Numbered from the stretch's first letter, positions 3,981 to 57,687 are shown. The stretch: DNA of 64,000 nucleotides from Burkholderiales bacterium (GCA_038327925.1 JBBQLM010000020.1:9569-73568), one strand, 5' to 3'. Translations and numbers: made by a program. Notes: generated by a model not told the origin, from the letters alone.

Positions 3981-4033
3981 TGCGTTCTTTCGATGATCGA
4001 CAGGGTTCCAAGAGCGCACCCCCAACGCAGCGC

Positions 4034-4080
4034 ATCGTAGGGACTTGCGCCCCGCCTGTCTGTCCCCAGAACTAGTGACA
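4034..4080 (-). promoter_or_regulatory. Putative operator + promoter for 2607..3980
   Basis: Gene-sense reading is TGTCACTAGTTCTGGGGACAGACA, then N17, then TACGAT (plus-strand atcgta 4034-4039, tgtctgtc 4057-4064). Confidence 0.6.
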
Positions 4081-4124
4081 AGCCCCGCCCCACGGCTGTG
4101 CTAGCGCCGGCCAAGGACTAGTAG

Positions 4125-4181
4125 CCAAATAGGCCTCAAGCCCTCGTCATACCTGCGTATACAGCTATTGTTTTTATAGCA
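4125..4181 (-). repeat. Dispersed REP-like intergenic repeat, copy 1
   Basis: The reverse complement reads TGCTATAAAAACAATAGCTGTATACGCAGGTATGACGAGGGCTTGAGGCCTATTTGG. Nine related copies occur in the window. Confidence 0.8.
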
Positions 4182-4190
4182 TCCATACCA

Positions 4191-4949
4191 TCAAGGCTTC
4201 ACCGTCACCCCCTGCGCCGTGCCCAGCGGCTGGTTGTTGACCATGCGGTAGCGGGCTTTGCCGCCTTGCCCTGTGCCGTCTTGCCACACGCTCTGCCCCA
4301 CCCGCTCGGTGGGCACGCCCGAGACCGTCAGGTCTGGCACCAGCGTGTAGCGCTGGCCCTGGAACACGATGGTGGCGGTGCCGTCAAGCTGAATACTCAG
4401 CGTGGCGCTACCGTCCAGGCCCAGCAGAGCGTTGTGCAGCGCGGTCACATCGGCAAAGGCCGGGTACAGGATTTGGTGGTTGCCTTGGGCGTCGATGAAG
4501 TGCCAGTTGCCGTCAGCGCCTATGACCAATTGCGCGCTGCCCGTGGAGGGATCGAGTTGGACCTGCACACCGGGTTGCACCGCGTAGATCAGGCCGTTGA
4601 ACGTGGCAATCAGCACACCGTTGTCGGCCTGCCTGACCACCACGCCGGGCAAGAGGGCCAGCAGTTGGTCCAGGCTCACCAAAGCCGGGGTGATGACCAG
4701 CGACTGGCCGTTGCGCACGATCTGGTAGCGGCCATCGCCCAGGGGGTAGATGCCGTTGGCGCGCGGGTCACCGCTGCCTTGGTAGTTGCTGGGCACAAAG
4801 GCCAGCTTGCCACCGTTGAAGCCGCTCAGGGTGACGGTGCCCAGCGCGTTTTGGCCTATGGGTTGCAGCGGCTGGCCCAGCGCGTTGGAGAGCATGGCCA
4901 CCAGGTCGGCCAGGAAGGCCGGGCCTTCGCCAGCGGCCATGTTGACGAT
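4191..4949 (-). repeat. DNA repeat encoding shared C-terminal module (class 1)
   Basis: Near-identical at nucleotide level to 8534..9292 and clearly related to 12468..13220 and 16653..17408. Confidence 0.85.
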
Positions 4950-7900
4950 GGGCGGCAGCGCGGTGACGCCGGGGACGGTGACGGGCAACGGGGGAATGAC
5001 AGGCAGGGTGGGCGTGCTCACCGGGACCTGCACCGGGATGGCTTGCTTGAGGATGAAGCCATCCTGTTGACCGACCGCCGTCAGCGCCGGGGTGGTGAGA
5101 TTGCCGCCAAAACTCCCGCCCAGGGTGATATTGCCGACAGCATCCATGGCGATGGCATTGGCGTTGGCACTTGCCCCGCTGCCGCCGTAGTTCTTCGCCA
5201 AGCCAATGGCGCCGTTGGCGTCGAGCTTGAAGGCGAACACGTCTCTGTTGCCGATGAGCGTCAGCGCCGGGGTGGTGAGGTTGGTCGCGCTGCTGGCCTG
5301 CCCTGTGGAAAACACCCCGCCGAGGGCGACATTGCCAGCGGCATCGACGGCGATGGCATTCACCGAGGCATTCAACCCGCTGCCGCCAAAATTCTTGGCC
5401 CAGACGGCGGCGCCGGTGTTATCGAGCTTGAAGGCGAAGGCGTCTTGCGAGCCAATTTTGCTCAGCACCGGGGTGGTGAGGTCGCCAGACTCGAAATATC
5501 CACCCAGATAGACATTGCCGCTCCCATCCACCGCAATGCCGAAGGCCTCCGCAAACGCCCCGCTGCCGCCGAAGTTCTTGACCCAGAGGGTGGCGCCGCT
5601 GGCGTCGAGTTTGAGGGCGAAGGCGTCCCCCACGCCGATTTTCGTCAGCGCCGGGGTGGTCAGGTTGGCGGATTTGAAATTCCCGCCCAGATAGACATTG
5701 CCGCCGCCATCCACCGCGATGCCATAGCCGTAGGCCTTTGCCCCGCTGCCGCCGAAGTTCTTGGCCCAGGCGATGCTGCCGTCGGCATTCAGTTTGAAAG
5801 CAAAGGCATCGCTGTTGCCGAAGCTGGTCAGTGCTGGAGTGCCGAAGACACCGCCATTGAAATTCCCGCTGTTGCCAAAATCCCCGCCCAAATAAACCTT
5901 GCCGGAAGCATCCACCGCGATGCTTCGCGCATGGATAGTCGCCGCGCCGGCGAACCCCTGCGCCCAGACGGTAGCGCCGCCGGCATCGAGTTTGAGGGCG
6001 AAAGAAGCCCCCCAGGCGCTGAGCGGGCCCAAGGCCGGGGTGGTGAGACTGCCAGAGGTATCCCCTGTCAGATAAACATTGCCGGCGCCATCGACCGCGA
6101 TGGCTCTGGCAAGCGCACTCACGGGATCGTAGGCATAAGTCAGCCCGCTGTCGCCGAAATTCTTCGCCCACAGCACGCTACCGGCGGCGTTGATCTTGGC
6201 GGCGAAGGCATCCAGTGCGCCGATGCGGGTCAGGGTGGTGCCGCCCAGTGTCAGGCTGGCGCCAGCGAAAGAGCCGGCGATATAGGTGTTGCCCGCCGCA
6301 TCGACCGCCGTGGCGTTGATGCTGGTGAAGGCGCCGCTGCTGCCAAAGCTGCTGGCGGTAAAGCTGCTGGACGTGCTGACACTGGCCGAGGCGCTGGAGG
6401 CGCTGCTGTTGCCGATGCCGTTGGCCGCCGTCACGCGGAAGGTGTAGGCCGTGCCCAGCGCCAGGCCGACGATATGGTGGGTGGTGGCGGTGCTGCCGGC
6501 ATCCACATCCACCCCGCCTGCCGGGCTGGTGATCACCGTGTAGCCGGTGATCGCCGAGCCGTTGTCCGCCGGGGCGGTAAAGCTGACGGTGGCGACGTTA
6601 CCGGTGAGCGTGACGGTGGGCGCCGCCAGTTGCGACGGCGCACCGGCATAGGCGAACAAGCCGTTGCCGATGCCACCGGTGCCCGACGGGGTGGTCACGG
6701 TGACATCCACCGCACCGAAGCTCGTGGTGCTGGCGGGCACGGTGACGGTGATGGAGGTGGCGGAATTGACGGTCAAGGACGTGCCGGGGTTGGCACCGAA
6801 GTTCACCGCAGTGGCTCCGCTGAGGCTGTAACCGCTGAGGGTCACGACCGTGCCGCCGGAGACACCGCCACTGGCGGTGCTGAGGCTGTTGACAACCGGC
6901 AACACGGTCGTTTGCTTGAGGATGAGGGCGTCCGTCCTGCCATTCGGGGTAAAGGTCAAGGCAGGGCTGGTGAGGTTGCCGTTGTCGAAAGACCCGCCCA
7001 GATGAACGTTGCCCGAGACATCGACGGCAATGGCGAAAGCGTTGGCACTTACTCTATTGCCATAGCGATCCACACCGCCACCGCCGTAGTTCCTGGCCCA
7101 GGTGGTAGCGCCAAGGGAGTCGAGCTTGAGGGCGAAGGCATCTGTGCTGCCGATCTTGGTCAAAGCCGGGGTGGTGAGGTTGGCGCTGCTGAAATCCCCG
7201 CCCAGATAGACGTTGCCCAAGGCATCGACGGCGATGCCGGTCGCTGTGGCTATCGCCCCTGCGCTGCCGCCGTAGTTCCGGGCCCAGGCACCGGTGCCCG
7301 AAACGGAGCCGACCGAATCGAGCTTGAAGGCAAAGACGTCTCCCGTGCCGATCAGACTCAAGGCCGGGGTGGTGAGGTTGGCAGAATCGAAATTCCCGCC
7401 CAGATAAACGTTGCCCGAGGCATCGACGGCAATGGCATTGGCATAAGCACCCGCCCCGCTGCCGCCGTAGTTCCGGGCCCAGTCGGGGGAGCCATTGCTC
7501 GGATCGAGCTTGAGGGCGAAAGCATCCGCGCCACCGATCCTGGTCAAGGCCGGGTAGGTGAGGTTGGCGCTGTGGAGATAGCCAGCCAGATAAACATCGC
7601 CCCAGGTATCGACGGCGATGGCGTTGGCCCGCGTTGTCGCCCCGCTGCCGCCGTAGTTTTTGGCCCAGATGGTGGTGCCGTCGGCGGCATCGAGCTTGAG
7701 GGCGAAGGCATCCTGAACGCCGCGCACGATCTCCCCCAGGATGGAGGGGTTGGTTCCATTGCCAGAATACCCGCTCAAATAGACACCGCCCGTGCCATCG
7801 ACGGCGATGCCGGTGGTTTTGGTGTTTTGAACGGACGTGCCACCCAAAACTTTCGCCCAGAGGGTCGTGCCAGCGTCATCGAGCTTGATGACAAAGGGAC

Positions 7901-10744: not shown

Positions 10745-12265
10745 CTAAGACGGGTAAAAGCCTCGTGTGCAGATCACATAGGTAAGGCCGTTCGGGGCGG
10801 CGGCACGCAGATCCGGCAAGGCGAAGGTGAGCGTATTGTCGCCACCGTAGGTGGCCCCCATAATCGCGTACAGCCCTGAGTTCTGGGCGATGGACAATAT
10901 CTGTCCCATCGCCCTTGTCCAATCTGCGGAATGGCGACCGGCTATCAATATCACCTGGCCAAGCATGCAACCGATCGCGTCTGGCTGGGTTCCCGCGACG
11001 GCATTGGATGTGCCCGTTCCGAACAGCGCCGCGGTACCCGCTGGGCCGGTGGCTCCCGTAGGCCCAACCACCCCTGCGGCACCCGCTGGACCGGTCGCAC
11101 CCGTCGCGCCAGCGGCACCGGCTGGGCCAGCGCTGCCGGTCGCCCCGGCAGGCCCCGTAGCACCTGCCAGTCCGGTCGCGCCGGTGGCACCAGTCGCTCC
11201 GGCCAGGCTGACGCCCGCCGGCCAGGTGCCGCCGGCCTTGGGGCCGAAGATCGCGCGGGTGGCGCTGTTGTAGTAGAAATCGCCGTTGTTGCCATCGCCG
11301 GCGGCGGGGTCCACCGTTCCCGTGAGCATCCCCGGCCCGGTCGCGCCGCTTGGGCCAGTGGCGCCGGTAGCACCTGCCGGACCGGCTGCACCGGTGGCGC
11401 CCGTCGCTCCGGCTAGGCTGACGCCCGCCGGCCAAGTGCCGCCGGCCTTGGGGCCGAAGATCGCGCGGGTGGTGCTGTTGTAGTAGGAATCGCCGTTGTT
11501 GCCATCGCCGGCGGCGGGGTCCACCGTTCCCGTAAGCATCCCCGCCCCGGTCGCGCCGCTTGGGCCAGTGGCGCCGGCTGCGCCAGTGGCCCCCGCCGGG
11601 CCAGTCGCTCCAGTCGCGCCAACTGCGCCGACTGGGCCAGCGCTGCCGGTCGTCCCGGCAGGCCCCGTGGCTCCTGCTGGCCCGCTTGGTCCGGTCGCGC
11701 CGGTCGCTCCGGTAGCGCCCGCAGGGCCGGTGGCCCCGGAGGCCCCACTGATCGTGCCGCAGGCCCAGCCGCTGGCGCCTTTGAGCAAAGTCTGGCCGGT
11801 GGCGCACGGTTCGCCAAGACTGGCGGCGGTGATCGCTCCGTTGGCCACGGTGGTAGCAGTATTGGCGGTGTTGGCCAACATCGCATAGGGCACCGATGAC
11901 AGCGCCTGGCGCGGCGTCATCTCGGCCCCGCTGCCGATCTGCACGCCCAGGTAATAGGGCGCGTCGAAGGCAAGATTGAGCGGCGTAACGCTACCCAGTT
12001 GCACCGCATAGAGCCCGTTGCCCACCGCAACCGACTGGGTTTCGCTCCACAGCATGGTGCCGCCACTGGCGGCGTCGTACAGCCTGAAGGTGATGCTCAG
12101 GGTGCTATTGACTGCCTGCCCGGCCTGGGTCAGCTTGCCTTGGTAGGAAATCTGCCGCACCGGCACCGTGGCCTGTGCTGCCCCGCCACACAACAACAAG
12201 GCTGAAACCAGCGCCAGCCGGCGGCAAGCGAAAAACCGGTGCGAAAAATGATCCGTGGCGGACAT
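10745..12265 (-). CDS. Secreted collagen-like triple-helix repeat protein with C-terminal phage-tail-collar domain
   Basis: ORF 10745..12310, start moved to ATG 12265 (MSATDHF..., GGAG 9 nt upstream) because the predicted -10 (12309-12314) lies downstream of 12310. Contains long G-X-Y tracts ([10 protein letters not shown]...). C-terminus ...[38 protein letters not shown]...GFYPS matches the tail-collar/MdpB-type pattern. Confidence 0.85.
11201..11585 (-). repeat. Tandem duplication (210-bp period) inside collagen-like gene
   Basis: 11201..11375 and 11411..11585 are near-identical. They encode two copies of [18 protein letters not shown](S/F)YYNS(T/A)[27 protein letters not shown]. Confidence 0.85.
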
Positions 12266-12308
12266 AAAGGGCAACTCCAATGGCAAAAGAGGCGGGGTGG
12301 GCACGCGC

Positions 12309-12355
12309 ATGGTAGGGACATCGAGCGCGCCTGTCTGTCCCTAGAACTAGTGACA
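12309..12355 (-). promoter_or_regulatory. Putative operator + promoter for collagen-like/GT2/module-protein operon
   Basis: Plus-strand atggta 12309-12314 (sense TACCAT), N17, tgtctgtccctagaactagtgaca 12332-12355. Confidence 0.6.
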
Positions 12356-12399
12356 AGCGCCAAGCGCCAACTGTGCTAGCGCCGGCCAAGGACTAGCAA

Positions 12400-12456
12400 C
12401 AAAATTGGCCGTTAGCCCTCGTAATACCTGCGTGGATAGCTACGATTTCAGTAGCA
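12400..12456 (-). repeat. REP-like repeat, copy 3
   Basis: caaaattggccgttagccctcgtaatacctgcgtggatagctacgatttcagtagca. Confidence 0.75.
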
Positions 12457-12467
12457 AACCACTCGCC

Positions 12468-13220
12468 TCATGGTTTCACCGTCAACCCCTGCGCCGTGCC
12501 CAGCGGCTGGTTGTTGACCACGCGGTAGCGGGCCGCGCCCTCTTGCCATGCGCTCTGCCCCACCCGCTCCGTGGGCACGCCGGCAAGCGTGGGGTCTGGC
12601 ACCAGCGTGTAGCGCTGGCCGTGGAACACGATGGCGGCGGTGCCGTCCAACTGGATGGCCGATGTGGCACCAAAGTCAAGGCCTAACAGCGCATTGCGCA
12701 GCGCCGCCGGGTCGGCAAAGGCGGGGTACAGCACCTGGTGGTTGCCCAGCGTGTCGATGAAGTGCCAGTTACCGTCAGCGCCCATCACCAGCCGTGCGTT
12801 GCCCGTTGCCGCGTCCAGTTGCACCTGCACGCCGGGTTGCACGACGTAGGTCACGCCGTTGAGGATGCCGGTGAGTACGCCGTTGTCGGCCTGCCTGGCC
12901 AGCAAACCGGGCAAGAGGGCAACGAGTTGCTCCACATGCACCAGCGCCGGGGCCAGCAGGATGGAATCGCCATTGCGCACCACCTGGTACTGGCCGTTGG
13001 CCAATGGGCTGGTCACGCGGTAGATGCCGTTGGCGCGTGTGTCACCGCTTTGGAACTTCAGCGGGATGAAGGCCAGCTTGCCGCCGTTGTAGCCACTCAG
13101 GGTGACGGTGCCGCACACGCCTTGTTCCACAAAGGCCAGGGGCTGGCCGACAGCAGCGGACAGCAGCGTGACCATGTCCGCCGTGAAGGCCGGGCCCAGG
13201 TCGGTGCCGAGGTTGAGGAT
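12468..13220 (-). repeat. DNA repeat encoding shared C-terminal module (class 2, with CGL...VCG cysteines)
   Basis: Closest to 16653..17408 and related to the class 1 copies. Confidence 0.8.
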
Positions 13221-46455: not shown

Positions 46456-47589
46456 CTAGCTTGCAGCAACTACGGTGTTGCGGCCCTGCTGTTTGGCCTG
46501 GTACAGCGCACCATCGACCCGCCGGAACCATTCAGCGTGGTTTTCCGCCGGCTTGAGCTCGGCAACGGCGAAGGATGCAGGCAGCAACACGGTGTTTGCA
46601 CCGTCCGCAATGGAGGTTGTGGCCAGCGTCTGGCGCAAGCGCTCGGCCAATTGCAGCGCCGCCGCCATCTCCGTCATGGGCAACAGGACCAGAAATTCCT
46701 CACCCCCCACACGTCCCAACAGGTCGCCATCCCTCAACTGCGCACCCACTGCCCGAACCGCCTCGCGCAAAGCGCGGTCCCCCGCGGGGTGGCCGTAGGT
46801 GTCGTTGATGGCTTTGAAGTGGTCCAGATCGAACATGATCAGGGAGGCACTGGTCCCGTGCCGCAGGCGTGTTGACACCAGGGTTTCCATTTGCTCCAGG
46901 GTGTGACGTCGGCTGTAGGCCCCGGTGAGCTGGTCGTGAATGACCAGGTCATTGAGCCGCTCGACCAGCGCCGCGTTGCGCGCATGATGCTCGGCATCCC
47001 GCAGGACCACCAACCCCAACGAACGCGTATAAGCCAGCTGAACGGCCAGCCCCGCCACCAAGCCCACCACCATGATGTTCGTCAATGGGCCGGCGAACTG
47101 CACAACGTGCAGCAGCGGAACCAGGTACATGCCGGCAAAGAACAATAGTGCGGCCTTGGCGTATGAGGACATGGTCACCATGCTGACGCCGGCCACGCCC
47201 ACCAGAATCGTCATCGTGGCCAGGTAGGACAGGACATCCCCTTCGCGCCAGACAAACCACACCGCGGAACCCCAGACCATGCCGCACAGGCCCGCCAGGA
47301 CAAAGTGGGTGTTCTTGCATGCCTGGCTGTCACCGTGGCTCTCCAGCGCCTTGCGACAGCGCATGCCGACCAGGAAAATGGCAGCCTCGCCGGCCGTGAT
47401 CAGCAGGGCCCAGGTTAAGGCAGGCGTCAGTCCGGCAGAGACCCACAAGACCCAGGACAACAACGCAATGCCGGCAAAGGCACTGAGCGCCCCCGTCATC
47501 GCGCGTTCATTGAAAACCCGCAGGCGTTCCGACGAAACCGCCAGGGCGATGGCCCCTTCATTCAATTCGTGGTGCGAACAGCTCTGCAT
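46456..47589 (-). CDS. Diguanylate cyclase (GGDEF) with N-terminal multi-TM sensor
   Basis: 377 aa with ~6 hydrophobic segments followed by a GGDEF domain (...YSRRHTLEQM..., RVGGEEFLVLL). Confidence 0.85.
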   Translation of the reverse strand: MQSCSHHELNEGAIALAVSSERLRVFNERAMTGALSAFAGIALLSWVLWVSAGLTPALTWALLITAGEAAIFLVGMRCRKALESHGDSQACKNTHFVLAGLCGMVWGSAVWFVWREGDVLSYLATMTILVGVAGVSMVTMSSYAKAALLFFAGMYLVPLLHVVQFAGPLTNIMVVGLVAGLAVQLAYTRSLGLVVLRDAEHHARNAALVERLNDLVIHDQLTGAYSRRHTLEQMETLVSTRLRHGTSASLIMFDLDHFKAINDTYGHPAGDRALREAVRAVGAQLRDGDLLGRVGGEEFLVLLPMTEMAAALQLAERLRQTLATTSIADGANTVLLPASFAVAELKPAENHAEWFRRVDGALYQAKQQGRNTVVAAS

Positions 47590-47688: not shown

Positions 47689-48429
47689 ATGCAACCCAAA
47701 CCGCGCATCCTCCTGGTGGAAGACGAGTCCGGCATCGCCGACACGCTGCAGTACGTGCTGTCCACCGATGGCTTTGCGCCAGTGTGGTGCAGCACTGCCG
47801 CCGAGGCGCTGGTGCAGTTTGCCGCGGAACCGCCGGCCCTGGCGGTGCTGGATGTGGGCCTGCCCGATCTCAATGGGTTCGAGCTCTTTCGCCGTCTGCA
47901 GGCCCTGCCCGGCGGGCATCTGGTGCCGATGATTTTCCTGACGGCGCGCAGCGATGAGATCGACCGTGTGGTGGGCCTGGAGCTGGGCGCCGACGACTAC
48001 ATCGCCAAGCCGTTTTCGCCGCGCGAACTGGTGGCGCGGGTGCGCACCATCCTGCGCCGCAGTGCACGCCCGCTGGGTGGGCCCGTAGCGGCGGCGCCCG
48101 TTGCACCGGCGCCGCCCCCACCGGCTACGCCACCCGCCATCTGGCAGCTCGACGAAGAACGCCACCTGATCCGCTACCACGGCCGCGCGCTGGATCTGTC
48201 CCGCTACGAATACGGCGTGCTGCGCCTTTTGGTGCAGCGCCCCGGCAAGGTGTTCACGCGCGACGAGCTGCTGCTCAAGGTCTGGGGCGATGACAACGCC
48301 AGTTTTGACCGCACGGTGGACGCCCACATCAAGACCCTGCGCGCCAAGCTCAAGGCCGTGGCGCCCAACCATGAGCCCATCCGCACCCTGCGCGGCACCG
48401 GCTACGCGCTCAACGAAAACCTGACTTGA
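47689..48429 (+). CDS. creB: OmpR-family response regulator CreB
   Basis: Start moved to ATG 47689 (MQPKPRILLVEDESGIADTLQYVL...). Collinear with my recollection of E. coli CreB (LDVGLPD..GFEL.R.L...P..FLTARS.E.DR..GLE.GADDY.AKPFSPRE...RVRT.LRR; DRTVD.HIKTLRAKL). Confidence 0.85.
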   Translation: MQPKPRILLVEDESGIADTLQYVLSTDGFAPVWCSTAAEALVQFAAEPPALAVLDVGLPDLNGFELFRRLQALPGGHLVPMIFLTARSDEIDRVVGLELGADDYIAKPFSPRELVARVRTILRRSARPLGGPVAAAPVAPAPPPPATPPAIWQLDEERHLIRYHGRALDLSRYEYGVLRLLVQRPGKVFTRDELLLKVWGDDNASFDRTVDAHIKTLRAKLKAVAPNHEPIRTLRGTGYALNENLT

Positions 48430-49913
48430 GCAAGCGCACCCGCATCTTCCTGGGCATCCTGCTGATCTACGCGATCGGCATTGCCGCCGTGCTCTACCTG
48501 GTGGTGACGGACATCGACCCGCGCTACCGCGAGTCGGCCGAGGAATCGCTGGTGGAAACCTCCCAGGTGCTGGCCACCCTGGTGGAGCTGGATGTGCAGG
48601 GCGGCGTGATCGACACCGCGCGGCTGGACACGCTGTTCAAGGCCGTCTACGCCCGCAGCTTCGAGGCCCAGATCTTCAGCGTCAACAAGACCAAGGTCGA
48701 GCTGCGCGCCTACGTCACCGACCGGCGCGGCACCGTGGTTTACGACTCGACCGGTCAGTCGGTGGGCAAGGACTTCTCGCAGTGGCGCGACGTGCGCATG
48801 ACCCTGCGCGGCGAGTACGGCGCACGCACCTCGCTGGACATCCCCGGCGACCCCGACTCCGCCGTGATGTACATGGCCGCGCCGGTGCGCTGGACCGACA
48901 ACACCCAGGGGCCCGGCACGGGCGAGATCATCGGCGCCGTCACCGTGGGCAAGCCGGTGCAAACCTTTGGCCAGTTCGTGGCCGCCGCGCGCAGCCGCAC
49001 GCTGTACGTGGGCCTGCTGTCGGTGGTGGCGGTGCTGGTGCTGGCCGTCACCGTGTCGGTGTGGCTGGTGCGGCCGTTCGGGTTGATCGGCGACTACGCG
49101 CGCTACGTCAAGGCCCAGCCCGGCTTCTACCCCATGCGCCTGCTACGCCGCGCGCTGGCCCTGCTGCGCGCCGCCTACGACGAGATGCGCGACGCCCTGG
49201 CCGGGCGCAACTACGTGGCCGACTATGTGCAGACCCTCACGCACGAGGTCAAGAGCCCGCTGTCGGCCATCCGCGGCGCCGCGGAGCTCTTGCAGGAGCC
49301 CATGGAAGAGGCGCAGCGCCAGCGCTTTCTGGGCAACATCCAGCGCGAGACCCAACGCATCCAGGAAATGGTGGACCGCATGCTGGAACTCACCGCGCTG
49401 GAAACGCGCCGCGTGCTCGACAGCACCCAGCCCGTGGCTCTGGCGCCGCTGCTGGAGGAACTGGCGCACGCCGCGCAGGGCGTGGCCACGCAGCGGCGCA
49501 TCACCCTGACGGTGACCACCGACACCGACGCCACGGTGGAGGCCGACCCCTTCCTGCTGCGCCGCGCCGTGAGCAACCTGCTGGACAATGCGCTGGACTT
49601 TTCGCCCGAGGGCGGCCAGGTGGCACTGGGCCTGAGCCTGCAGGGGCGCTGGGCCTGCATCACCGTCTGCGACCTGGGCCCCGGCATTCCTGCGTACGCA
49701 CAGGACAAGGTGTTCGAGAAGTTCTACTCCCTGGCACGGCCGCACTCGCGCAAGAAGAGCACGGGACTGGGATTGAGCTTTGTAAAGGAGATTGCCACCT
49801 TGCATCGTGGGCGGGTGGAACTGCGCAACCGCTCCGATGTAACTGGTGCGGCCCACGCCAGCGCCGGAGCTGTGGCCAGTCTGTGGCTGCCGTGTGGGCC
49901 GCGTGTGCACTGA
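48426..49913 (+). CDS. creC: Sensor histidine kinase CreC
   Basis: TTG start overlaps the creB stop. ...SQWRDVRMTLRGEYGARTSLDIPGDPDSAVMYMAAPV... and ...YVQTLTHEVKSPLSAIRGAAELL... match my recollection of E. coli CreC. Confidence 0.85.
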   Translation: MSKRTRIFLGILLIYAIGIAAVLYLVVTDIDPRYRESAEESLVETSQVLATLVELDVQGGVIDTARLDTLFKAVYARSFEAQIFSVNKTKVELRAYVTDRRGTVVYDSTGQSVGKDFSQWRDVRMTLRGEYGARTSLDIPGDPDSAVMYMAAPVRWTDNTQGPGTGEIIGAVTVGKPVQTFGQFVAAARSRTLYVGLLSVVAVLVLAVTVSVWLVRPFGLIGDYARYVKAQPGFYPMRLLRRALALLRAAYDEMRDALAGRNYVADYVQTLTHEVKSPLSAIRGAAELLQEPMEEAQRQRFLGNIQRETQRIQEMVDRMLELTALETRRVLDSTQPVALAPLLEELAHAAQGVATQRRITLTVTTDTDATVEADPFLLRRAVSNLLDNALDFSPEGGQVALGLSLQGRWACITVCDLGPGIPAYAQDKVFEKFYSLARPHSRKKSTGLGLSFVKEIATLHRGRVELRNRSDVTGAAHASAGAVASLWLPCGPRVH

Positions 49914-49928: not shown

Positions 49929-49941
49929 GCAATTGAAGTCG
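49929..49941 (+). repeat. Left 13-bp terminal inverted repeat flanking low-G+C islet
   Basis: GCAATTGAAGTCG is the exact reverse complement of 51888..51900 (CGACTTCAATTGC). Confidence 0.6.
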
Positions 49942-49966
49942 AAGGCAGGGACCTAGTGATCAAGCG

Positions 49967-49990
49967 GGCTTTGCGGTGTGACGCAAAGCC
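49967..49990. terminator. Hairpin downstream of creC
   Basis: Stem GGCTTTGCG (49967-49975) / CGCAAAGCC (49982-49990) with a 6-nt loop. No U-tract. Confidence 0.3.
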
Positions 49991-50126
49991 GACAGCCAAT
50001 CAATATCTAAAACACTATTACCGCCACCAGTCACTGATATATCCCTTTTTGTAAAACTCGATTGATTTCACCTGCTTGCGCGAAAAGTCCACATTGACTG
50101 ATGAATTGATTGGCTGAAATCCGGCA

Positions 50127-50672
50127 TCAATCTTTACCAGTCCATTCTGGCAATTCTTCACCGGCCATGTCCGCCACTTTTCGATTGAAGTCGTCCCGCT
50201 CCTTGAGCTTTGCACAAATGAACTCTACGGCCTCGTCATCTCTAAAGATCACTAGGTGGTCACGTAACTTGGCGCGATTTCCAAGAATCCCGCCCGGTTG
50301 TGCTTTGGATCCACCATCGTTTGTTATGAGTGTGGCGCCATACTTGGCTGCTTCATAAACGACTTTGACATCGTTCTTCATATTTTGGGTCTGTGCGCCG
50401 CGAGGAAAAAGTGCACTCTCGATCTTGTTATAGAGTGGATCGCCTTCGGAAATGTCTTCATCAGTGAGGGTGAATATTTGAGCCAACGTCTTCTTGGTTC
50501 GGGCCCGATCATTTCCAACCAGTGCTTCTTTGAAGCTGACTCCCGACATGTTCACCTGAATGACTTCATCCGCTGCCCATTTCTCGATTCGATTCATGGA
50601 GGCGAGTTTGCCGCGCCCGTTAATGACGTTTGTGTCGATATGGAACACCGTGTAAAGCATTCGGCGCTGCAT
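50127..50672 (-). CDS. Hypothetical protein, possibly PIN-like nuclease fold (low-G+C islet)
   Basis: ORF 50127..50681 (TTG); ATG candidates at 50672 and 50660. N-terminus ...VFHIDTNVINGRG... and ...ATLITNDGG... are reminiscent of PIN acidic motifs. This is weak and not verified. Confidence 0.5.
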   Translation of the reverse strand: MQRRMLYTVFHIDTNVINGRGKLASMNRIEKWAADEVIQVNMSGVSFKEALVGNDRARTKKTLAQIFTLTDEDISEGDPLYNKIESALFPRGAQTQNMKNDVKVVYEAAKYGATLITNDGGSKAQPGGILGNRAKLRDHLVIFRDDEAVEFICAKLKERDDFNRKVADMAGEELPEWTGKD

Positions 50673-50750
50673 TTTGATCAACTAAGTGCTTCCTGATATG
50701 TTCAACGCAAGAATTGAAATTTGTTGGTGCTGCAGCCCAACTGCCGCACA

Positions 50751-51101
50751 CTAACCTGCAAGCGTTGCGGAATCGATGACCCACCTTTCGACAGGAGGGA
50801 TTTCATGCATCGGCACGTAGTGCGCCGGGTCGAATTGTGCTAATCGCAGTGTAAGAAATGCACGAATTCTTCGACCTGCGCCGCTTTGATTGGCCACCGA
50901 CGCGCTTTTGAAGTCCGACAACGCGTCATGCGTTACGCAAATTTCAATAGTTTTTGAATTCTTACTCGGCCGTTCGGGATCATCTTGGAGTGCCCAATCG
51001 ACACGGAGAATCAGTTCACGAGCACTTGGCACTCGCCGAACGTCTGCGTTCGCAGGCATCGTCTCTGCAACAATTTGAATGAACTGACCTTCAAAGGACA
51101 T
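50751..51101 (-). CDS. Hypothetical protein (low-G+C islet)
   Basis: 116-aa ORF with codon usage matching its AT-richer neighbours. No family recognised. Confidence 0.45.
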   Translation of the reverse strand: MSFEGQFIQIVAETMPANADVRRVPSARELILRVDWALQDDPERPSKNSKTIEICVTHDALSDFKSASVANQSGAGRRIRAFLTLRLAQFDPAHYVPMHEIPPVERWVIDSATLAG

Positions 51102-51151
51102 GAGGCCCCCTGCCTGTGAGTAACGAATTTATCAACTGAGCGACTTCTGGC

Positions 51152-51772
51152 TCATTGTTTTTCATCCCTATCAGTAACGCCAACTGGTAGAGGATAAGAC
51201 GGGTCGTAGATACCAAAAATCTCTACCTTATCCGTGCTTAATCCAAAGAAAATTTGAGAATCCGGAAACGCATAGAGTCTTGTCAGTCCATCCTTGGACG
51301 ACGTGATCAAAGCACTATCTCCGAATCGATCAGTTATTTGCTTGGACGTGTCGCCAAATCGGATACCTTGCAGTTCACGATACGGCGAGTCACTCTGCAC
51401 CCCATACAAAATAACCCCTCGGACTTTTTCATTTTTAAACCTCACCGATGCAAGAGCAGATTCACTGAGCTTGTAGATATACGAAAGCCCGGTTTCTGGA
51501 TTTCTTTCTTCGGTTGGCAGACCCTTTTTGAAGCGTACATCTTGTAGGGGATCGCCTAACTTGACGCCCCATAGTTCAGATTGTTTGAATGGTCTTTCTG
51601 AATACCACGTCCATGCCCACTCCGATAGCCAACCGATTGCGATAGCGCAAACAGCGACAGCAAGTCCCCGCATGGCAACTGTGCGCCAGTTCCATCTATC
51701 TTTTGCAGCAACGAAAAGTGCAACCATCGCGATGATGGCCCCTCCCGCAAATAATCCGGTCCCAATGTTCAT
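51152..51772 (-). CDS. Hypothetical membrane protein (2 TM + soluble domain; low-G+C islet)
   Basis: 206 aa with TM segments LFAGGAIIAMVALFVAA and GLAVAVCAIAIGWL. The C-domain has repeated G(V/I)(K/R)(L/F)GD...V/I motifs, BamE/SmpA-like at best. Confidence 0.55.
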   Translation of the reverse strand: MNIGTGLFAGGAIIAMVALFVAAKDRWNWRTVAMRGLAVAVCAIAIGWLSEWAWTWYSERPFKQSELWGVKLGDPLQDVRFKKGLPTEERNPETGLSYIYKLSESALASVRFKNEKVRGVILYGVQSDSPYRELQGIRFGDTSKQITDRFGDSALITSSKDGLTRLYAFPDSQIFFGLSTDKVEIFGIYDPSYPLPVGVTDRDEKQ

Positions 51773-51887
51773 GGCATCACCGCGTTTATGAATCTAATGG
51801 CAAGACTATAGCCCGACAGACCACGTACCCAAAAGGCCGCTATCACCCATAGGGGTCGGTTATAGGCTCGTACATGAAGCGCGCATG

Positions 51888-51900
51888 CGACTTCAATTGC
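51888..51900 (-). repeat. Right 13-bp terminal inverted repeat flanking low-G+C islet
   Basis: CGACTTCAATTGC; see 49929..49941. Confidence 0.6.
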
Positions 51901-52043
51901 GCAGAGCAATCCGCGCACCGTTACGTTCTTCACGCGGACTTCACACAAACTTCACACAGCCCCCCGCAGGCTTCCAACAGCCTTCGCCTCTCGGCGGGAT
52001 GCTTCCTCCACCGTGCAATCACGCACGCCCATCGGAGGAAACC

Positions 52044-54131
52044 ATGGCCCTGGCCACCACCCAACCCGTCTTACCCGCAGCACCGGAGCGTCTCTCGCGC
52101 TGGCTGTGGCTGGCTACCACCACCTTGTCCGCCGTCTGCTTCGTGGCGCTGGTCCACACACCGGCCCGCGCACAGGACCGCGACGCCGCCCCGCGCCAGA
52201 AGACCGAGAGCCCTTACTTCTTCATCAAAAGCAATGACCCCGCGGTGGACCAGTTGCCGCTGAAGTCCACCCGGGTCGATGTGCGCGTCAGCGGCGTGAT
52301 TGCCGACGTCACCGTGGTGCAGACCTACAAGAACGAAGGCCAGCGCGCCATTGAGGCCAAGTACGTCTTCCCCGGCTCCACCCGCGCGGCGGTGCACGGC
52401 ATGAACGTGCGCCTGGCCGATCGCCTGATCACTGCCAAGATCCGCGAGAAGCAACAGGCCCGCATCGAGTACGACGCGGCCAAGAAGGAAGGCAAGACCG
52501 CCGCTCTGCTGGAGCAGCACCTGCCCAATGTATTCCAGATGAACGTGGCCAACATCCTGCCCGGCGACGACGTGAAGGTGGAGCTGCGCTACACCGAGCT
52601 GCTGGTGCCCACGGATGGCAACTACCAGTTCGTATTTCCCACCGTGGTCGGACCGCGCTACAACAGCCCGCAGAGTAGCCAGGCCAACGCCACCTGGGTG
52701 GCTCAGCCCTACCTGCCCAAGGGCCAGCAAACGCCCAGCAGTGCCGATGCGCCTGCCTTCGACATCCACGTCACGCTGAACACGCCCATCGCCGTCAAGG
52801 AAGTGCGCTCCAGCTCGCACGACATCAACAGTTTCCGCGAACAGGGCGGCACCACGGTCATTGGGCTCAAGCCCGGGGCCGAGCCGGCCAACAACCGCGA
52901 CTTCATCCTGGACTACCGCCTGGCCGGTGCGGCAATAGAGAGCGGCGTGATGCTCTACAAGGGCCAGGACGAGAACTTCTTCCTGGCCATGGTGGAGCCG
53001 CCCAAGGCCCCACCACCCACAGCCATCAGCCCGCGTGACTACATCTTTGTCGTGGACATTTCCGGCTCCATGCATGGCTTCCCGCTCGACACGGCCAAGA
53101 CCCTGCTGCGCGAGCTGATTGGCGGCCTGCGCCCCAGCGACACCTTCAACGTGTTGCTGTTCTCGGGCAGCAACCGCTTCCTCAATGCCCACTCGGTTCC
53201 GGCCAGCCGTGCCAATATCGAACAGGCGATCCGCACCATCGACCAGATGGGTGGTGGCGGGGGCACCGAGCTGATTCCGGCGCTCAAACGTGTCTACGCC
53301 GAGCCCAAGGCGGCCGACGTGTCGCGCAGCGTGGTGGTGGTGACCGACGGCTATGTGACCGTCGAGCGCGAGGCCTTTGAGCTGGTGCGCAACAACCTGT
53401 CCAAGGCCAATGTGTTTTCCTTTGGCATTGGCTCCAGCGTGAACCGCCACCTGATGGAAGGCCTGGCCCGCGCCGGCATGGGTGAGCCCTTCATCATCAC
53501 CAAGCCGGCCGAGGCCGCCGAGCAGGCCACCCGCTTTCGGAAAATGATTGATTCACCGGTGCTGACCAACGTGAAGCTGCGCTTTGACGGCATGGATGTC
53601 TACGACGTGGAACCGCGCAACCTGCCCGACCTGCTGGCCCAGCGCCCGGTCATCGTGTTCGGCAAATGGCGTGGCGAGGCCAAGGGCAAGCTGGTGCTGG
53701 AAGGCCAGGCAGCCAACGGCCCTCTGCAACTGAGCATGGATGTGAGCGCCAGTCGCGGCACCGATACCGCTGCCCTGCGCCACCTGTGGGCCCGCCACCG
53801 TATTGCGTCCCTGAGCGACCAGGAGTCGCTGGAGGGGGGCGACGCCTTCAGCAAGGCCATCACCGAGTTGGGCCTGAAATACAGCCTGCTCACGCAGTAC
53901 ACCAGCTTCCTCGCCGTGGACCAGGTGGTGCGCAATCTGGCGCCCGCAGACAGCACCAGCGTGAACCAGCCCAGCCCCCTGCCGCAGGGTGTGGAGAACA
54001 CTGCGCTGGGTGCCGAAGTGCCCAGCACGCCCGAGCCCGCCACCTGGGGCGCGATGCTGGTCACGCTGTCGGTGCTGGCCATGCTGGCCACCCGCCGCCG
54101 CCGTGCCCGTAGCGAACACTTCACGAGTTGA
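52044..54131 (+). CDS. VIT + von Willebrand factor A domain protein with PEP-CTERM sorting signal
   Basis: ORF 51885..54131, start moved to ATG 52044 (SD GGAGGA; MALATTQPVLPAAPERLSRWLWLATTTLSAVCFVALV). VIT-like N-region (...LKSTRVDVRVSGVIADVTVVQTYKNEG...AKYVFP). vWA MIDAS motif (FVVDISGSM). C-terminus VPSTPEPATWGAMLVTLSVLAMLATRRRRARS gives PEP, a TM segment and an Arg cluster (54018-54128). Confidence 0.85.
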   Translation: MALATTQPVLPAAPERLSRWLWLATTTLSAVCFVALVHTPARAQDRDAAPRQKTESPYFFIKSNDPAVDQLPLKSTRVDVRVSGVIADVTVVQTYKNEGQRAIEAKYVFPGSTRAAVHGMNVRLADRLITAKIREKQQARIEYDAAKKEGKTAALLEQHLPNVFQMNVANILPGDDVKVELRYTELLVPTDGNYQFVFPTVVGPRYNSPQSSQANATWVAQPYLPKGQQTPSSADAPAFDIHVTLNTPIAVKEVRSSSHDINSFREQGGTTVIGLKPGAEPANNRDFILDYRLAGAAIESGVMLYKGQDENFFLAMVEPPKAPPPTAISPRDYIFVVDISGSMHGFPLDTAKTLLRELIGGLRPSDTFNVLLFSGSNRFLNAHSVPASRANIEQAIRTIDQMGGGGGTELIPALKRVYAEPKAADVSRSVVVVTDGYVTVEREAFELVRNNLSKANVFSFGIGSSVNRHLMEGLARAGMGEPFIITKPAEAAEQATRFRKMIDSPVLTNVKLRFDGMDVYDVEPRNLPDLLAQRPVIVFGKWRGEAKGKLVLEGQAANGPLQLSMDVSASRGTDTAALRHLWARHRIASLSDQESLEGGDAFSKAITELGLKYSLLTQYTSFLAVDQVVRNLAPADSTSVNQPSPLPQGVENTALGAEVPSTPEPATWGAMLVTLSVLAMLATRRRRARSEHFTS

Positions 54132-54967
54132 TCATGGCGCTGCCCCGCTTATTGCAGATGCCGCGCTTTGTGCGCTTCGGCATCGCCATCGACACTGCCC
54201 CCGAGTGGCGCTGGCTGGCCCTGCTGACGGTCGCGCTGTGGCCCACCTGGTGGTGGATGGGCCAGCGCATGGTCGATGGCTCTGACGACCCGCTGGGTGT
54301 GCTGGCCCTGGCCGCCCTGGGTGGGCTGCTGTGGCAGCAACGCCAGCGCCTGCGTGCCGCACCGCGCCTGGGCTTCCAGGTAGTTGCCCTGACAGGCGCG
54401 GTGCTGACCACATCACTGCACGGCCATGTGCCTGACCTGCTGGGCGCACTGGTGGGCGTGCTGTCACTCGCCGCCGGCCTGATTGCCTTTCTGCCAGCAC
54501 GGGTGGCCACCGCGCCGGTGTGGGGCCTGTCGGTGCTGTCGCTGCCGCTGCTGGCATCGCTGCAGTTCTACGCCGGCTTTCCACTGCGGGTGGTCACGGC
54601 CGAGGCCAGCCGCTGGCTGCTGTCGCTGGCCCACACCGTGGAGCGCAGCGGCAGCGCGCTGGTGGTCGACGGCCAGCTCATCATCGTGGATGCGCCCTGC
54701 TCCGGCGTGCAAATGGTGTGGCTGGGCTACTTCACCGCCTGCGTGGTGGCCCTGGCTACCGACCGTGACAACCGCGCCTTCCTGCTGCGCCTGCCCGTCG
54801 TGGGCGTGTTGGTGCTGCTGGGCAATGTGCTGCGTAACACCGTGCTGGTGGCCGCACAGGCATCCAGCGCACCCCTGCCAGGCTGGGGCCATGACGCCGT
54901 TGGCCTGCTGGTGCTGGCCGCCGTCTGCACCGGCATCGCCTGGACCATGGCCCGCCATACCCGTTGA
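54128..54967 (+). CDS. Exosortase (exosortase/archaeosortase family transpeptidase)
   Basis: TTG 54128 (overlapping the upstream stop) or ATG 54134. Polytopic membrane protein with signature residues: Cys in VDAPCSGVQM, Arg in LGNVLRNTV, His in GWGHDAVG. Confidence 0.85.
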   Translation: MIMALPRLLQMPRFVRFGIAIDTAPEWRWLALLTVALWPTWWWMGQRMVDGSDDPLGVLALAALGGLLWQQRQRLRAAPRLGFQVVALTGAVLTTSLHGHVPDLLGALVGVLSLAAGLIAFLPARVATAPVWGLSVLSLPLLASLQFYAGFPLRVVTAEASRWLLSLAHTVERSGSALVVDGQLIIVDAPCSGVQMVWLGYFTACVVALATDRDNRAFLLRLPVVGVLVLLGNVLRNTVLVAAQASSAPLPGWGHDAVGLLVLAAVCTGIAWTMARHTR

Positions 54968-55551
54968 ACCTTCAATCCGCCATGAAACTCTTAGAGAACC
55001 GCTTTCTGAACCGTGTGCTGCACAAGACCCTGTGGGCCACGCTGCTGCCGCTGTGCGCGCTGGCCGGAATGGCGCACAGTGTGATGGACCACCGCCGCGC
55101 AGCCAACGACGCGGACAACCGCGCGCCGGCTGCACAAGCCGCCGAGCTGCCCGGTCAGTGGCGCGGCGCACCGCTGCGCCCGCTGGCACTCAGCGAGGTG
55201 GAGCTGCGCTTTGCCGCCCACTTCCCTGGAACCGTGTCGCGCATGACCGATGGCCGCCAGGTGCTGGTGCTGCGCACCGTCAACCAGCCGACCCGCATGC
55301 TGCACCCGGCCACCGACTGCTACCGTGGCCTGGGCTACCGCATCCGCAACGAACAACTGGAAGTGCAGGCCGACCACGCGCGCTGGCGCTGTTTTGTGGC
55401 CCAGCGTGGTGCGCGCCAGGTGCGGGTCTGCGAGCAGATTGAGGACGCCCAGGGCCAGGGCTTTACCGATGCCTCCGCCTGGTACTGGGCCGCGCTGGCC
55501 GGCCAGTCGCGCGGTCCGTGGAAGGCCACCACCGTGGCCACCGTGCTGTGA
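54964..55551 (+). CDS. Exosortase-associated EpsI-family-like protein
   Basis: TTG 54964 (overlapping the upstream stop) or ATG 54982. Has an N-terminal TM segment. The motif HPATDCYRGLGY resembles the EpsI H-[ST]-P-x-x-C-x-x-G-x-G-W motif. Confidence 0.6.
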   Translation: MNLQSAMKLLENRFLNRVLHKTLWATLLPLCALAGMAHSVMDHRRAANDADNRAPAAQAAELPGQWRGAPLRPLALSEVELRFAAHFPGTVSRMTDGRQVLVLRTVNQPTRMLHPATDCYRGLGYRIRNEQLEVQADHARWRCFVAQRGARQVRVCEQIEDAQGQGFTDASAWYWAALAGQSRGPWKATTVATVL

Positions 55552-56780
55552 CCCGCGCCGCCACACTCCACGCCCTGCGCAGAGTGGCCTATTGGCTGGG
55601 CGTGGTCAGCGCGGCCAGCCTGTGCGCCGTGCTGGCGCTGCTGCTGGTCGCACGCGAAGCCCTTCGCCCCGCACCCGATGCGTGGGCCACGACGCTGCCC
55701 ATCGGCCCGATGAAGGTCGAGATCGGCGTGCCGTCGCTGATCTGGCTGGCCACCACACCCTGGCTGGCGCAGCGGCTGGACGGCTACACCCTGCCCTCGC
55801 GCATGGGCCCGCTGCACCTGGGCTGGAGCGCGGCGGAGCAGGCGCTGACCCTGCAATGCCAGCCCTGCAGTGTGCGCAACGCCAGCTGGGGTGGTCAGGC
55901 TCTGCAACTGGCGGCGGTGCGCGTGAGCGTGCGCCGCGAAGGCATGGCCCTGCAGGGCAGCCTGGTGTCCGGCGCGCTGCATGCCACCTGGCGCGGGCAG
56001 CTCACGCACAACCGGCTGCTGCTTGACCTGGACCTGCCACCCAGCCCGATCCGCGACGGCTATGCGCTGTTTGCTGCCTCTATCCCGGAGCTGGCCACGG
56101 CGCAAATCGACGGCAGCTTTGCGCTGCGCGCCCGCCTGGATCTGCCGTCGCGCGTGCTCTCGCTGCGGCCCCGCGTGGAGGGCATGGCGGTGCAGGGGCT
56201 GGGCACCGACCAGTGGACCCATGCCCGCAGCGTCTGCAGCCGCAACCTGACGCCCGTGCAGGCCGCAGCCCTGCCCGGCCCCAGCAGCCTGCTGGCGCGC
56301 GCAGTGATTGCCGCCGAGGACCAGCGCTTCTTTGAACACCCCGGTTTTGATCTGGTGGAGATGACGCAGGCCCTGCACAGCAACCAACGCGCCGAGCCGG
56401 CGCTGCGCGGGGCCAGCACGCTGTCACAGCAGGTGGCCAAGTTGCTAGTCACCGGCGGCGAACGCTCACCGGTGCGCAAGCTGCGCGAGTTGCTCTACGC
56501 GGTGGAGATGGAGCAGACGCTGGGCAAGGCCCGCATCCTGCGCCTGTACCTGGAGAACGCGCCCTGGGGCGCCACGGTTTGCGGCGCGCAGGCTGCGGCC
56601 CACACCTACTTTGGCAAACGCGCCGATCGGCTCACATCCACCGAGGCCCTCTGGCTGGCCGCGATGCTACACAACCCCGCCTTGGAGGCGCGACGCTGGG
56701 CGGCCACCGGCCAGATCAATGAGCAGCGGGTGCGCTGGGTGGCCCGCAGCATGCCGCGCCGGCTCTTAATCTCGCGCTAA
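55548..56780 (+). CDS. GT51 peptidoglycan glycosyltransferase domain protein with ~230-aa N-terminal extension
   Basis: ORF from 55518; GTG 55548 overlaps the upstream stop (GTGA). Has a TM segment (VAYWLGVVSAASLCAVLALLLV). The C-terminal GT51 motifs are AVIAAEDQRFFEHPGFD, GASTLSQQVAKLL and RKLRELLYAVEMEQTLGKARILRLYLENAPWG. Confidence 0.8.
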   Translation: MTRAATLHALRRVAYWLGVVSAASLCAVLALLLVAREALRPAPDAWATTLPIGPMKVEIGVPSLIWLATTPWLAQRLDGYTLPSRMGPLHLGWSAAEQALTLQCQPCSVRNASWGGQALQLAAVRVSVRREGMALQGSLVSGALHATWRGQLTHNRLLLDLDLPPSPIRDGYALFAASIPELATAQIDGSFALRARLDLPSRVLSLRPRVEGMAVQGLGTDQWTHARSVCSRNLTPVQAAALPGPSSLLARAVIAAEDQRFFEHPGFDLVEMTQALHSNQRAEPALRGASTLSQQVAKLLVTGGERSPVRKLRELLYAVEMEQTLGKARILRLYLENAPWGATVCGAQAAAHTYFGKRADRLTSTEALWLAAMLHNPALEARRWAATGQINEQRVRWVARSMPRRLLISR

Positions 56781-56850: not shown

Positions 56851-57687
56851 ATGCCAAAGAAAAGTCCCTTGTCCGCACTGCTGGTCAGTGTCTTCGCATT
56901 GTCCCTGTCCACGGCTGTGCTCGCCGACGACGACAACGGTCGTGACCACAACGAGTCCGGAGACGAGATCAGCGAGCATGGTGCCAACGGCGTAGATCTG
57001 GACCATGTCGCCACACAGGTTGGGGGCACGTCCACCCGCGTGAGCACCCGCAGCGACGGCAGCTATGAGGTCACGCTCGCTACTGGCTCGGTGGTACTCG
57101 TCAAGCCCACGGGCAACACACGCATTCACACACGCCGCACGGGCGTCAACTCGGCGGATGTTGATAGCGATGGGCATCTGCATCTGCAAACTGCCGACGG
57201 CTACGAAATGACGGTTGAATCCGCGCCGCACAATGAATCTGAAACCCACCACATTCTGGGACAAAACGGCCTGAGCAATGTGACGACCACCGGAGGCCGG
57301 GTCACTGGCACCCGACGCGACGGCTCACAGGTCAGCCTGGAAGCCGACTACGGGGTGAGCCGCAACGCAACATCCGGTGCCGTGCGCTACCAGGAGAACG
57401 AAACCGGCGTGGATATCGACTACGCCGACGGCACACGCCAGCGCTTCCATGGCGCAGCTGTTGACACCACCCAGTTGCGCACCAGCGCCCAATCCATGGG
57501 CTACACCGTCACCTTCAACAGCGATGGCAGCGCCAGCGCACGTTCCAGCAGCGTGAACTGCACGGTCAGGCTATCGCCCACCCTCACGCAGGGGCTCGCC
57601 CCTCAACCCGGCCTGCGCGTGCAGAACGGCCGGGTCATCATGCAATACCAAAGCGGACAGGAGCAGGAAGTCATCGTCGTGCAATAA
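56851..57687 (+). CDS. Secreted hypothetical protein
   Basis: SD AGGAGG upstream. Signal MPKKSPLSALLVSVFALSLSTAVLADD. Rich in Thr/Ser/Gly/Asp. No family recognised. Confidence 0.6.
   Translation: MPKKSPLSALLVSVFALSLSTAVLADDDNGRDHNESGDEISEHGANGVDLDHVATQVGGTSTRVSTRSDGSYEVTLATGSVVLVKPTGNTRIHTRRTGVNSADVDSDGHLHLQTADGYEMTVESAPHNESETHHILGQNGLSNVTTTGGRVTGTRRDGSQVSLEADYGVSRNATSGAVRYQENETGVDIDYADGTRQRFHGAAVDTTQLRTSAQSMGYTVTFNSDGSASARSSSVNCTVRLSPTLTQGLAPQPGLRVQNGRVIMQYQSGQEQEVIVVQ

Follow-up and report, generated by a model that had tools for sequence, protein, structure and literature searches.

Does an exosortase encoded next to one candidate substrate constitute a sorting system of its own, and if so, to which kind does the enzyme belong, which other proteins work with it, and what controls its expression? 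The question is raised by a four-gene locus in a 64,000-nucleotide stretch of DNA from a Burkholderiales bacterium (GCA_038327925.1, JBBQLM010000020.1:9569-73568; the whole stretch is hereafter referred to as the window), the source of which is a Rhodoferax-like bacterium from a sediment metagenome. The original prediction had described the locus as a dedicated exosortase system composed of a PEP-CTERM protein with VIT and vWA domains (the cargo), a small exosortase (gene 2), an EpsI-like protein (gene 3) and a GT51 protein (gene 4), with no exopolysaccharide (EPS) genes in the vicinity. All four plus-strand open reading frames (ORFs) proved to lie at the positions given for them, their order is not a product of chance, and the region from roughly -17 kb to +7 kb around the locus indeed contains no EPS genes. 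The analysis described herein indicates that the locus is probably an exosortase Q (XrtQ) cassette under the control of the CreBC two-component system, in which gene 3 encodes the partner of XrtQ. The coordinates of all features are summarized in Table 1.

Protein families were assigned by scoring against the NCBIfam/TIGRFAM and Pfam hidden Markov models, and the scores were judged against the curated cutoffs. For comparison, 80 genome loci carrying the cassette were fetched with 10 kb on either side of the matches (1.46 Mb in total, both strands of which were searched for the regulatory tag described below). These loci include Rhodoferax, Curvibacter, Polaromonas, Xylophilus and Variovorax, and most of them come from Comamonadaceae or near relatives. 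A further 80 loci, bringing the total to 160, were obtained by scanning metagenomes with distant fused XrtQ proteins as seeds, and were divided into tier A, with an XrtQ at least 45% identical to that of the window, and tier B, with an identity below 45% and a fused XrtQ in 31 of 33 cases. In addition, 1.84 billion representative proteins were searched with a profile, and 65 of the 885 relatives of gene 3 thus obtained were sampled.

The designation of gene 2 as an exosortase with the Cys/Arg/His signature was well supported by PF09721 (5.6e-25) and TIGR04178 (42.2 bits, cutoff 23). The subfamily, which had been left unnamed, is XrtQ according to NF012182, the match spanning model positions 1-256 of 256, and close relatives are labelled "exosortase Q" by the NCBI Prokaryotic Genome Annotation Pipeline (PGAP). 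Cys191 is present in every one of 80 XrtQ orthologues, and Arg236 and His255 are each conserved in 99% of them. Membership of the XrtA subfamily was rejected, the score being 32 bits against a cutoff of 208. A paper describing XrtQ or exosortase Q was not found in our literature search, outside which the NCBIfam curators' own description lay. Since an NCBIfam model exists while no descriptive paper was found, XrtQ is considered to be a named subfamily that is not well described.

Even where protein identity falls to 43-60%, the order cargo-XrtQ-gene 3 is preserved, being found in each of the 80 genome loci, and the synteny comparison that had been proposed for the locus further extended the conservation of the cassette order to distant metagenome loci. 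The cargo gene lies immediately upstream of xrtQ in 80 of 80 genome loci and in 15 of 15 testable tier A loci, and gene 3 adjoins xrtQ in 79 of the 80 genome loci, the contig of the remaining one (L040) ending before gene 3. In tier B, the cargo gene was directly upstream in 5 of 24 loci, and a GT51 gene with the N-terminal domain described below was downstream in 3 of 25; these loci probably represent other subfamilies sharing the partner domain. The downstream genes vary among the genome loci, and therefore the cassette ends at gene 4; a scan of the window found no terminator after this gene.

The genes had been thought to be joined by overlapping stop and start codons. While the strings TTGA (54128), TTGA (54964) and GTGA (55548) are all present, the first two junctions are probably gaps. 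The true start of xrtQ is probably an in-frame ATG, which gives a protein of 277 aa and a gap of 2 nt to the cargo gene, and that of gene 3 is probably also an ATG, which gives 189 aa and a gap of 14 nt to xrtQ, because the orthologues in public databases are 277 aa (P0001) and 189 aa (P0121) in length; MKLLENRF is the N-terminus of most gene 3 homologues. At the GTGA junction, gene 3 and gene 4 do overlap, by 4 nt, in agreement with the 410-aa gene 4 orthologues. Over the 80 genome loci, the median gaps at the three junctions, in order, are 18, -20 and 7 bp. Whichever starts are used, the four genes are packed as one operon.

The likeness of gene 3 to EpsI held for its arrangement beside or fused to an exosortase, but not for its family. 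As a candidate EpsI, the protein was rejected by PF11984 (DUF3485; 15.8 bits, cutoff 26.1) and gave no hit with TIGR02914 at E ≤ 10; PF11984 was hit by 4 of 38 gene 3 members at E ≤ 10 and by none of 66 distant relatives at E ≤ 0.01. With the XrtT and XrtU models, a match to the C-terminal portion was obtained. What the original prediction had overlooked was the fusion of this domain to exosortases: 52 of the 65 sampled relatives of gene 3 also carry an exosortase domain, for which XrtQ is the best NCBIfam match (2.4e-103), and the gene 3 domain sits at the C-terminus of these XrtQ-type enzymes. Such fusions, named "exosortase Q" at NCBI, occur in Comamonas serinivorans, Lampropedia, Aquabacterium and the gammaproteobacterium Agitococcus. 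Gene 3 is thus the free-standing form of the XrtQ C-terminal domain, and since the two are fused elsewhere, this Rosetta-stone evidence suggests that gene 3 and XrtQ act together.

Alignment of the gene 3 proteins revealed the invariant motifs LHPxxDCY..G, WRCF and RVCE, as well as a variable linker between the transmembrane (TM) helix and the domain. The AlphaFold2 model was confident, with a predicted local distance difference test (pLDDT) score of 82.5, and a fold search gave no PDB match with E below 0.1. Every source labels gene 3 "hypothetical", and none assigns a Pfam domain to it. The R. saidenbachensis orthologue (P0130) bears the UniRef name "CNP1-like uncharacterized domain-containing protein", and the matching Pfam hit was not seen in our scans. 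Another relative, a partial 937-aa protein from a Candidatus Riflebacteria metagenome-assembled genome (P0487), combines a TIGR03788 match (8.4e-74) with a terminal gene-3-type domain at aa 799-930, and is named an archaeosortase/exosortase family protein in its source; it may represent a genuine fusion of three parts or an artefact of gene calling.

The cargo gene is preceded by a GGAGGA ribosome-binding site 7 nt ahead of its ATG, and the protein is, as had been proposed, a VIT and vWA protein of the PEP-CTERM type (VIT, 1.5e-34; VWA_3, 9e-19; TIGR02595, 17.9 bits with a cutoff of 16). Its nearest solved relatives are PARP4 and the inter-alpha-trypsin inhibitor heavy chains (ITIH). Across 79 orthologues, the metal-ion-dependent adhesion site (MIDAS) DISGS at residues 338-342 is invariant, as are V659, P660, T662, P663, E664, P665, G669 and T694 of the tail. 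The layout of motif, TM helix and basic cluster was seen in every aligned cargo tail, and the VPSTPEP core persists to ~46% XrtQ identity; with PF07589, the tail scored 19.3 bits, just under the cutoff of 20.7. In the window (54090-54131) and in L001-L080, the cargo runs 8-15 residues beyond the basic cluster and has a conserved (Y/F)T(S/A) end, an extension that is unusual among PEP-CTERM tails and confined to a Comamonadaceae-like clade. The cargo aligned over its full length with TIGR03788, the marine proteobacterial sortase target, at 433.4 bits, and was rejected as a member of that family on the basis of the cutoff of 551.65, a PEP-CTERM rather than LPXTG tail, and a neighboring enzyme that is an exosortase.

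With regard to the number of substrates, the tight pairing of cargo and exosortase was confirmed, while the single substrate that had been claimed is seen locally only, that is, within 10 kb of 79 of the 80 genome loci. No other PEP-CTERM-like tail was found in the 64-kb window, and a second PEP-CTERM-like ORF within 10 kb was present in one genome locus (L016, 14229-17027), ~4 kb downstream, where it encodes a 932-aa protein with a VIT domain at aa 409-512 and a layout like that of the TIGR02921 PEP-CTERM family. It is conceivable that XrtQ is a general exosortase with other PEP-CTERM substrates, the adjacent cargo being one of many, and this second VIT-containing ORF would fit such a role, as would the 14 PEP-CTERM domains counted in Rhodoferax ferrireducens and the 3 in Polaromonas naphthalenivorans (Haft, 2006; PMC1569441, Table 4), in view of which a genome-wide single-substrate status is doubtful for some Rhodoferax. 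We nevertheless regard a general exosortase as unlikely, considering the strict adjacency of XrtQ to a single cargo family, the nearly invariant VPSTPEP, which is marginal on the general PEP-CTERM models, and the lack of a second candidate within 10 kb in all loci other than L016. Furthermore, PEP-CTERM-rich genomes usually carry an XrtA-type enzyme for their PEP-CTERM proteins; if this applies to the XrtQ genomes, it would also speak against this possibility.

Gene 4 encodes a GT51 protein as originally proposed (PF00912, 1.3e-43, 148.9 bits, cutoff 27). The GT51 motifs EDxRFxxHxG, GASTLSQQ and RKxxE are invariant, and so are the residues E257, D258, H264, G266, R310, K311 and E314 among 66 orthologues. 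The protein was rejected as a housekeeping MtgA by its TIGR02070 score (148.3 bits against a cutoff of 182.65) and by its extra N-terminal domain. This beta-rich domain of ~170 aa was modelled confidently and had no match in Pfam (E ≤ 10), PDB sequence or PDB fold searches; a lipocalin- or avidin-like beta-barrel was considered and discarded, the fold hits being weak and non-significant. For the GT51 half, the model was poor (pLDDT below 50), a shallow alignment being the probable reason.

The original prediction also passed over the identity of the two-component system upstream of the cassette, which is CreBC, and the cre-tag in front of the cargo gene. As listed in Table 1, both proteins pass the respective equivalog cutoffs; the creC start overlaps the creB stop, and creB is found upstream of the cassette in most loci. 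The tag, TTCACN6TTCACN6TTCAC, comprises two overlapping copies of TTCACnnnnnnTTCAC, the consensus of the cre/blr-tag (PMC3660660, citing Avison, 2001), and ends 89 bp before the cargo ATG. The 64-kb window contains no match to TTCACN6TTCAC other than these two copies, the expected number being 0.06. Exact copies of the tag number 103 in the 1.46 Mb of the 80 genome loci, and each of them lies on the cargo strand, a short distance upstream of the cargo gene. The exact tag is missing from six loci for which upstream sequence is available; five of these have a one-mismatch version in place, and the sixth (L005) has a more degenerate one. L031 lies outside this count, since its upstream sequence is absent. 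Among the metagenome loci, the exact tag was found in 12 of 14 testable tier A loci, including a gammaproteobacterial Agitococcus-type locus (L081). The leader between the tag and the cargo gene is also conserved across genera, for example in GCTTCAAACTG.CTTCTC and CCGTGCAATACCGCACGC, the first of which resembles a degenerate extra TTCAx-N6-TTCxC pair; no credible hit for the leader was obtained in Rfam.

In Variovorax, the layout is creBC, a minus-strand PBP1A-family gene, a minus-strand creD, the tag and the cassette, and CreD passes its equivalog cutoff. A single cre-tag is thereby flanked by creD and two GT51-domain proteins, as seen in L050 (3745-7661) and in a further 37 loci of this genus. 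In the other genera and in the window, creBC is directly upstream of and co-directional with the cassette, and outside Variovorax the tag can only serve the cassette, because there is no creD within 10 kb.

We then considered whether gene 4 and CreBC belong with the sorting genes at all, or whether the cargo, XrtQ and gene 3 form the only functional unit, GT51 and CreBC with its tag being co-inherited or part of a separate Cre-controlled cell-wall response. Several observations are unfavorable to a CreBC-controlled four-gene cassette. A GT51 hit was obtained in 69 of the 80 genome loci, directly after gene 3 in 68 of them and ~6 kb downstream in L060, where a 6-kb insertion with an AraC/ABC-transporter block separates it from gene 3; five genome loci have no GT51 within 10 kb. 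Tier A loci L082 and L083 have the cargo and a fused XrtQ without the tag; within 10 kb there is no GT51 gene in L083 either, and the contig of L082 ends too early to judge. GT51 and Cre control would thus not be obligatory for sorting, because some loci do without GT51. In Variovorax, moreover, the tag lies between a divergent creD and the cargo gene and may serve both or primarily creD, with the PBP1A gene also there, and the predominance of Comamonadaceae and near relatives among the loci would accord with shared ancestry. No sigma-70-like promoter was found by a simple scan, and only DNA metagenome runs, and no RNA runs, matched the window sequence.

Despite these points, we consider it unlikely, although worth retaining as the chief alternative, that the functional unit is limited to the three sorting genes. 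The GT51 gene stays directly behind gene 3 (median 7 bp) even where its identity falls to ~31-45%, while the downstream neighbors change completely, and the GT51 protein with its N-terminal domain co-travels in 16 of 18 testable distant loci of tier A. Likewise, the strand of the tag and its distance to the cargo gene are kept in the loci without creD. As a side observation, one of the loci without GT51 (L021) has, following gene 3, a gene for a secreted FG-GAP repeat protein (11446-12480).

Taken together, the family memberships, conserved residues, synteny, fusions and motif conservation led us to infer how CreB might act, how the cargo would be cleaved, what could accept it, and which role GT51 may play in the proposed XrtQ cassette under CreBC control. 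As suggested by the motif and its conservation, phosphorylated CreB would bind the tandem TTCAC units ~90-115 bp before the cargo start and activate a single cargo-xrtQ-gene 3-GT51 transcript. Sec export is predicted for the VIT-vWA cargo, whose C-terminal helix would keep it tethered in the inner membrane and place the RRRR cluster on the cytoplasmic side. By analogy with sortases and archaeosortases, the Cys/Arg/His residues of XrtQ would then cut at VPSTPEP and hand the cargo to an acceptor, and the gene 3 protein, in view of the fusions, may be an obligate periplasm-facing partner in this step. The GT51 protein, which is associated with the cassette, might supply or remodel lipid-II-derived glycan in the same envelope response, and the mature cargo, with its intact MIDAS, would be a metal-dependent surface binding or adhesion protein.

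A bolder extension, to which we assign a low probability, is that XrtQ forms a covalent bond between the cargo and a peptidoglycan precursor, such as the free amine of lipid II, and that GT51 polymerizes the loaded precursor into the sacculus. If true, the cassette would be the Gram-negative equivalent of cell-wall anchoring by sortases, with the envelope-stress system CreBC as its switch, and would provide the first acceptor named for an exosortase.

Table 1. Features of the XrtQ locus and its surroundings (positions in the window)
Feature	Position	Strand	Description
GGDEF diguanylate cyclase gene	46456..47589	-	runs divergently from creB
creB, OmpR-type response regulator	47689..48429	+	CreB equivalog NF008296, 295.7 bits, cutoff 273
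creC, sensor histidine kinase	48426..49913	+	CreC equivalog NF008312, 571.4 bits, cutoff 356
Low-GC insert	49929..51900		between creC and tag; 18-nt inverted repeat 49929-49946 / 51883-51900
Tandem cre/blr-tag, putative CreB site	51929..51955	+	three TTCAC units 6 bases apart (TTCACGCGGACTTCACACAAACTTCAC)
Leader	51956..52043		conserved across genera
Cargo gene, 695 aa	52044..54131	+	signal-peptide-like N-terminus (by eye), VIT aa 73-183, vWA aa 334-480, C-terminal signal
XrtQ-type PEP-CTERM signal	54018..54131	+	VPSTPEP, TM helix, RRRR, conserved extension ending T-S
xrtQ	54134..54967 (alternative TTG start 54128)	+	NF012182, 389.5 bits, cutoff 270
Gene 3, XrtQ partner protein	54982..55551 (alternative TTG start 54964)	+	one TM helix, ~130-aa alpha/beta domain
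Gene 4, membrane-anchored monofunctional GT51, 410 aa	55548..56780	+	TM helix, beta-rich domain aa ~47-216, GT51 aa ~246-402
DUF6188 protein gene	56851..57687	+	apparently secreted (hydrophobic N-terminus, by eye)

The neighbors of the cassette include genes for resistance-nodulation-division (RND) efflux, an AlkB-like protein, a RIO kinase, the GGDEF protein, CreBC and metabolic enzymes. Directly downstream is the gene for the DUF6188 protein, to which none of the 80 genome loci has a counterpart. Between creC and the tag, the window carries a 2-kb insert of low GC content (0.49) bounded by inverted repeats, which contains three orphan minus-strand ORFs of 184, 116 and 206 aa with no match in Pfam, NCBIfam or PADLOC, or in the 80 genome loci. 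The tag is intact and lies 29 nt past the right-hand repeat. At the same site, the closest relative (L001, 97% XrtQ identity) carries a different lower-GC insert (3526-7458) with minus-strand genes for a 1062-aa P-loop protein and a 247-aa partner, for which PADLOC, run with its defence models alone, gave no hit. As the length of the creC-to-tag spacer ranges from ~0 to 4.5 kb among relatives, this spacer appears to be an insertion hotspot.

Part of this picture is already known, namely the name of the enzyme family and the tail-swapping nature of the VIT/vWA cargo. What appears to be new is the constant GT51 protein with its novel domain, the fusions that define gene 3, and the association with the cre-tag and CreBC; no link between an exosortase and CreBC was found in the literature, in which Haft (2011) was the only source found for VIT/vWA proteins with PEP-CTERM. 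A cassette of one enzyme and one cargo beside a lipid-II-polymerizing enzyme offers a concrete candidate for an exosortase acceptor, either peptidoglycan or its precursor, and occurs in culturable isolates of Variovorax and Rhodoferax. Apart from the control of beta-lactamase, little is understood of what CreBC does physiologically, and the cassette would provide a conserved and easily assayed CreBC target promoter. As for annotation, the "hypothetical" label of gene 3 can be replaced by exosortase partner domain, and the GT51 protein should not be taken for an ordinary MtgA.

Compared with known systems, the window enzyme is identical in kind to the XrtQ of NF012182; none of the papers searched describes the partner domain, GT51 or the CreBC link for this family. 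With the classical XrtA (EpsH)/EpsI system, the cassette shares the enzyme superfamily, the Cys/Arg/His signature and an associated two-component regulator, and EpsI, like the gene 3 domain, is adjacent to or fused with the exosortase (PMC1569441). The XrtA/EpsI system, however, has many cargo proteins encoded at scattered sites, while the cassette has a single one next to the enzyme, lacks EPS genes in its vicinity, and has an accessory domain that fails the EpsI models; in place of the PrsK/PrsR sigma-54 regulator, it has the OmpR-type CreB and a TTCAC direct repeat.

CreB, CreC and the exact TTCACnnnnnnTTCAC promoter tag are shared with the Cre regulon of E. coli, Aeromonas, Pseudomonas and Stenotrophomonas, and CreBC/BlrAB has been linked to peptidoglycan perturbation (PMC3660660). 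In the papers found, a sorting cassette with GT51 behind the tag is not reported as a Cre target, and in contrast to the creBC-creD arrangement of the Cre regulon, the Rhodoferax-type loci have the cassette directly downstream of creC and no creD within 10 kb. Gene 4 has the GT51 motifs, the single N-terminal anchor and the lack of a transpeptidase in common with MtgA (TIGR02070), and differs from it in the sub-cutoff score and the additional beta-rich domain.

A parallel to the cassette as a whole, already drawn in the original prediction, is the Gram-negative sortase system, which consists of the TIGR03784 sortase and the TIGR03788 target and likewise places one sorting enzyme beside one cargo. 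The parallel stands insofar as the cargo shares homology with the marine sortase target, but the idea of the same cargo with a different enzyme had already been published, in general form, in 2011: VIT/vWA proteins swap GlyGly-CTERM, PEP-CTERM and LPXTG tails (Haft and Varghese, 2011; PMC3237569, Fig. 2C legend), and the LPXTG form is accompanied by an adjacent dedicated Gram-negative sortase (PMC3237569). An OmpR-type two-component system (TIGR03785/03787) is associated with the sortase system, its place being taken by CreBC in the window, and unlike the sortase system, the cassette described here combines a PEP-CTERM tail and an exosortase with an added GT51 gene and a partner protein.

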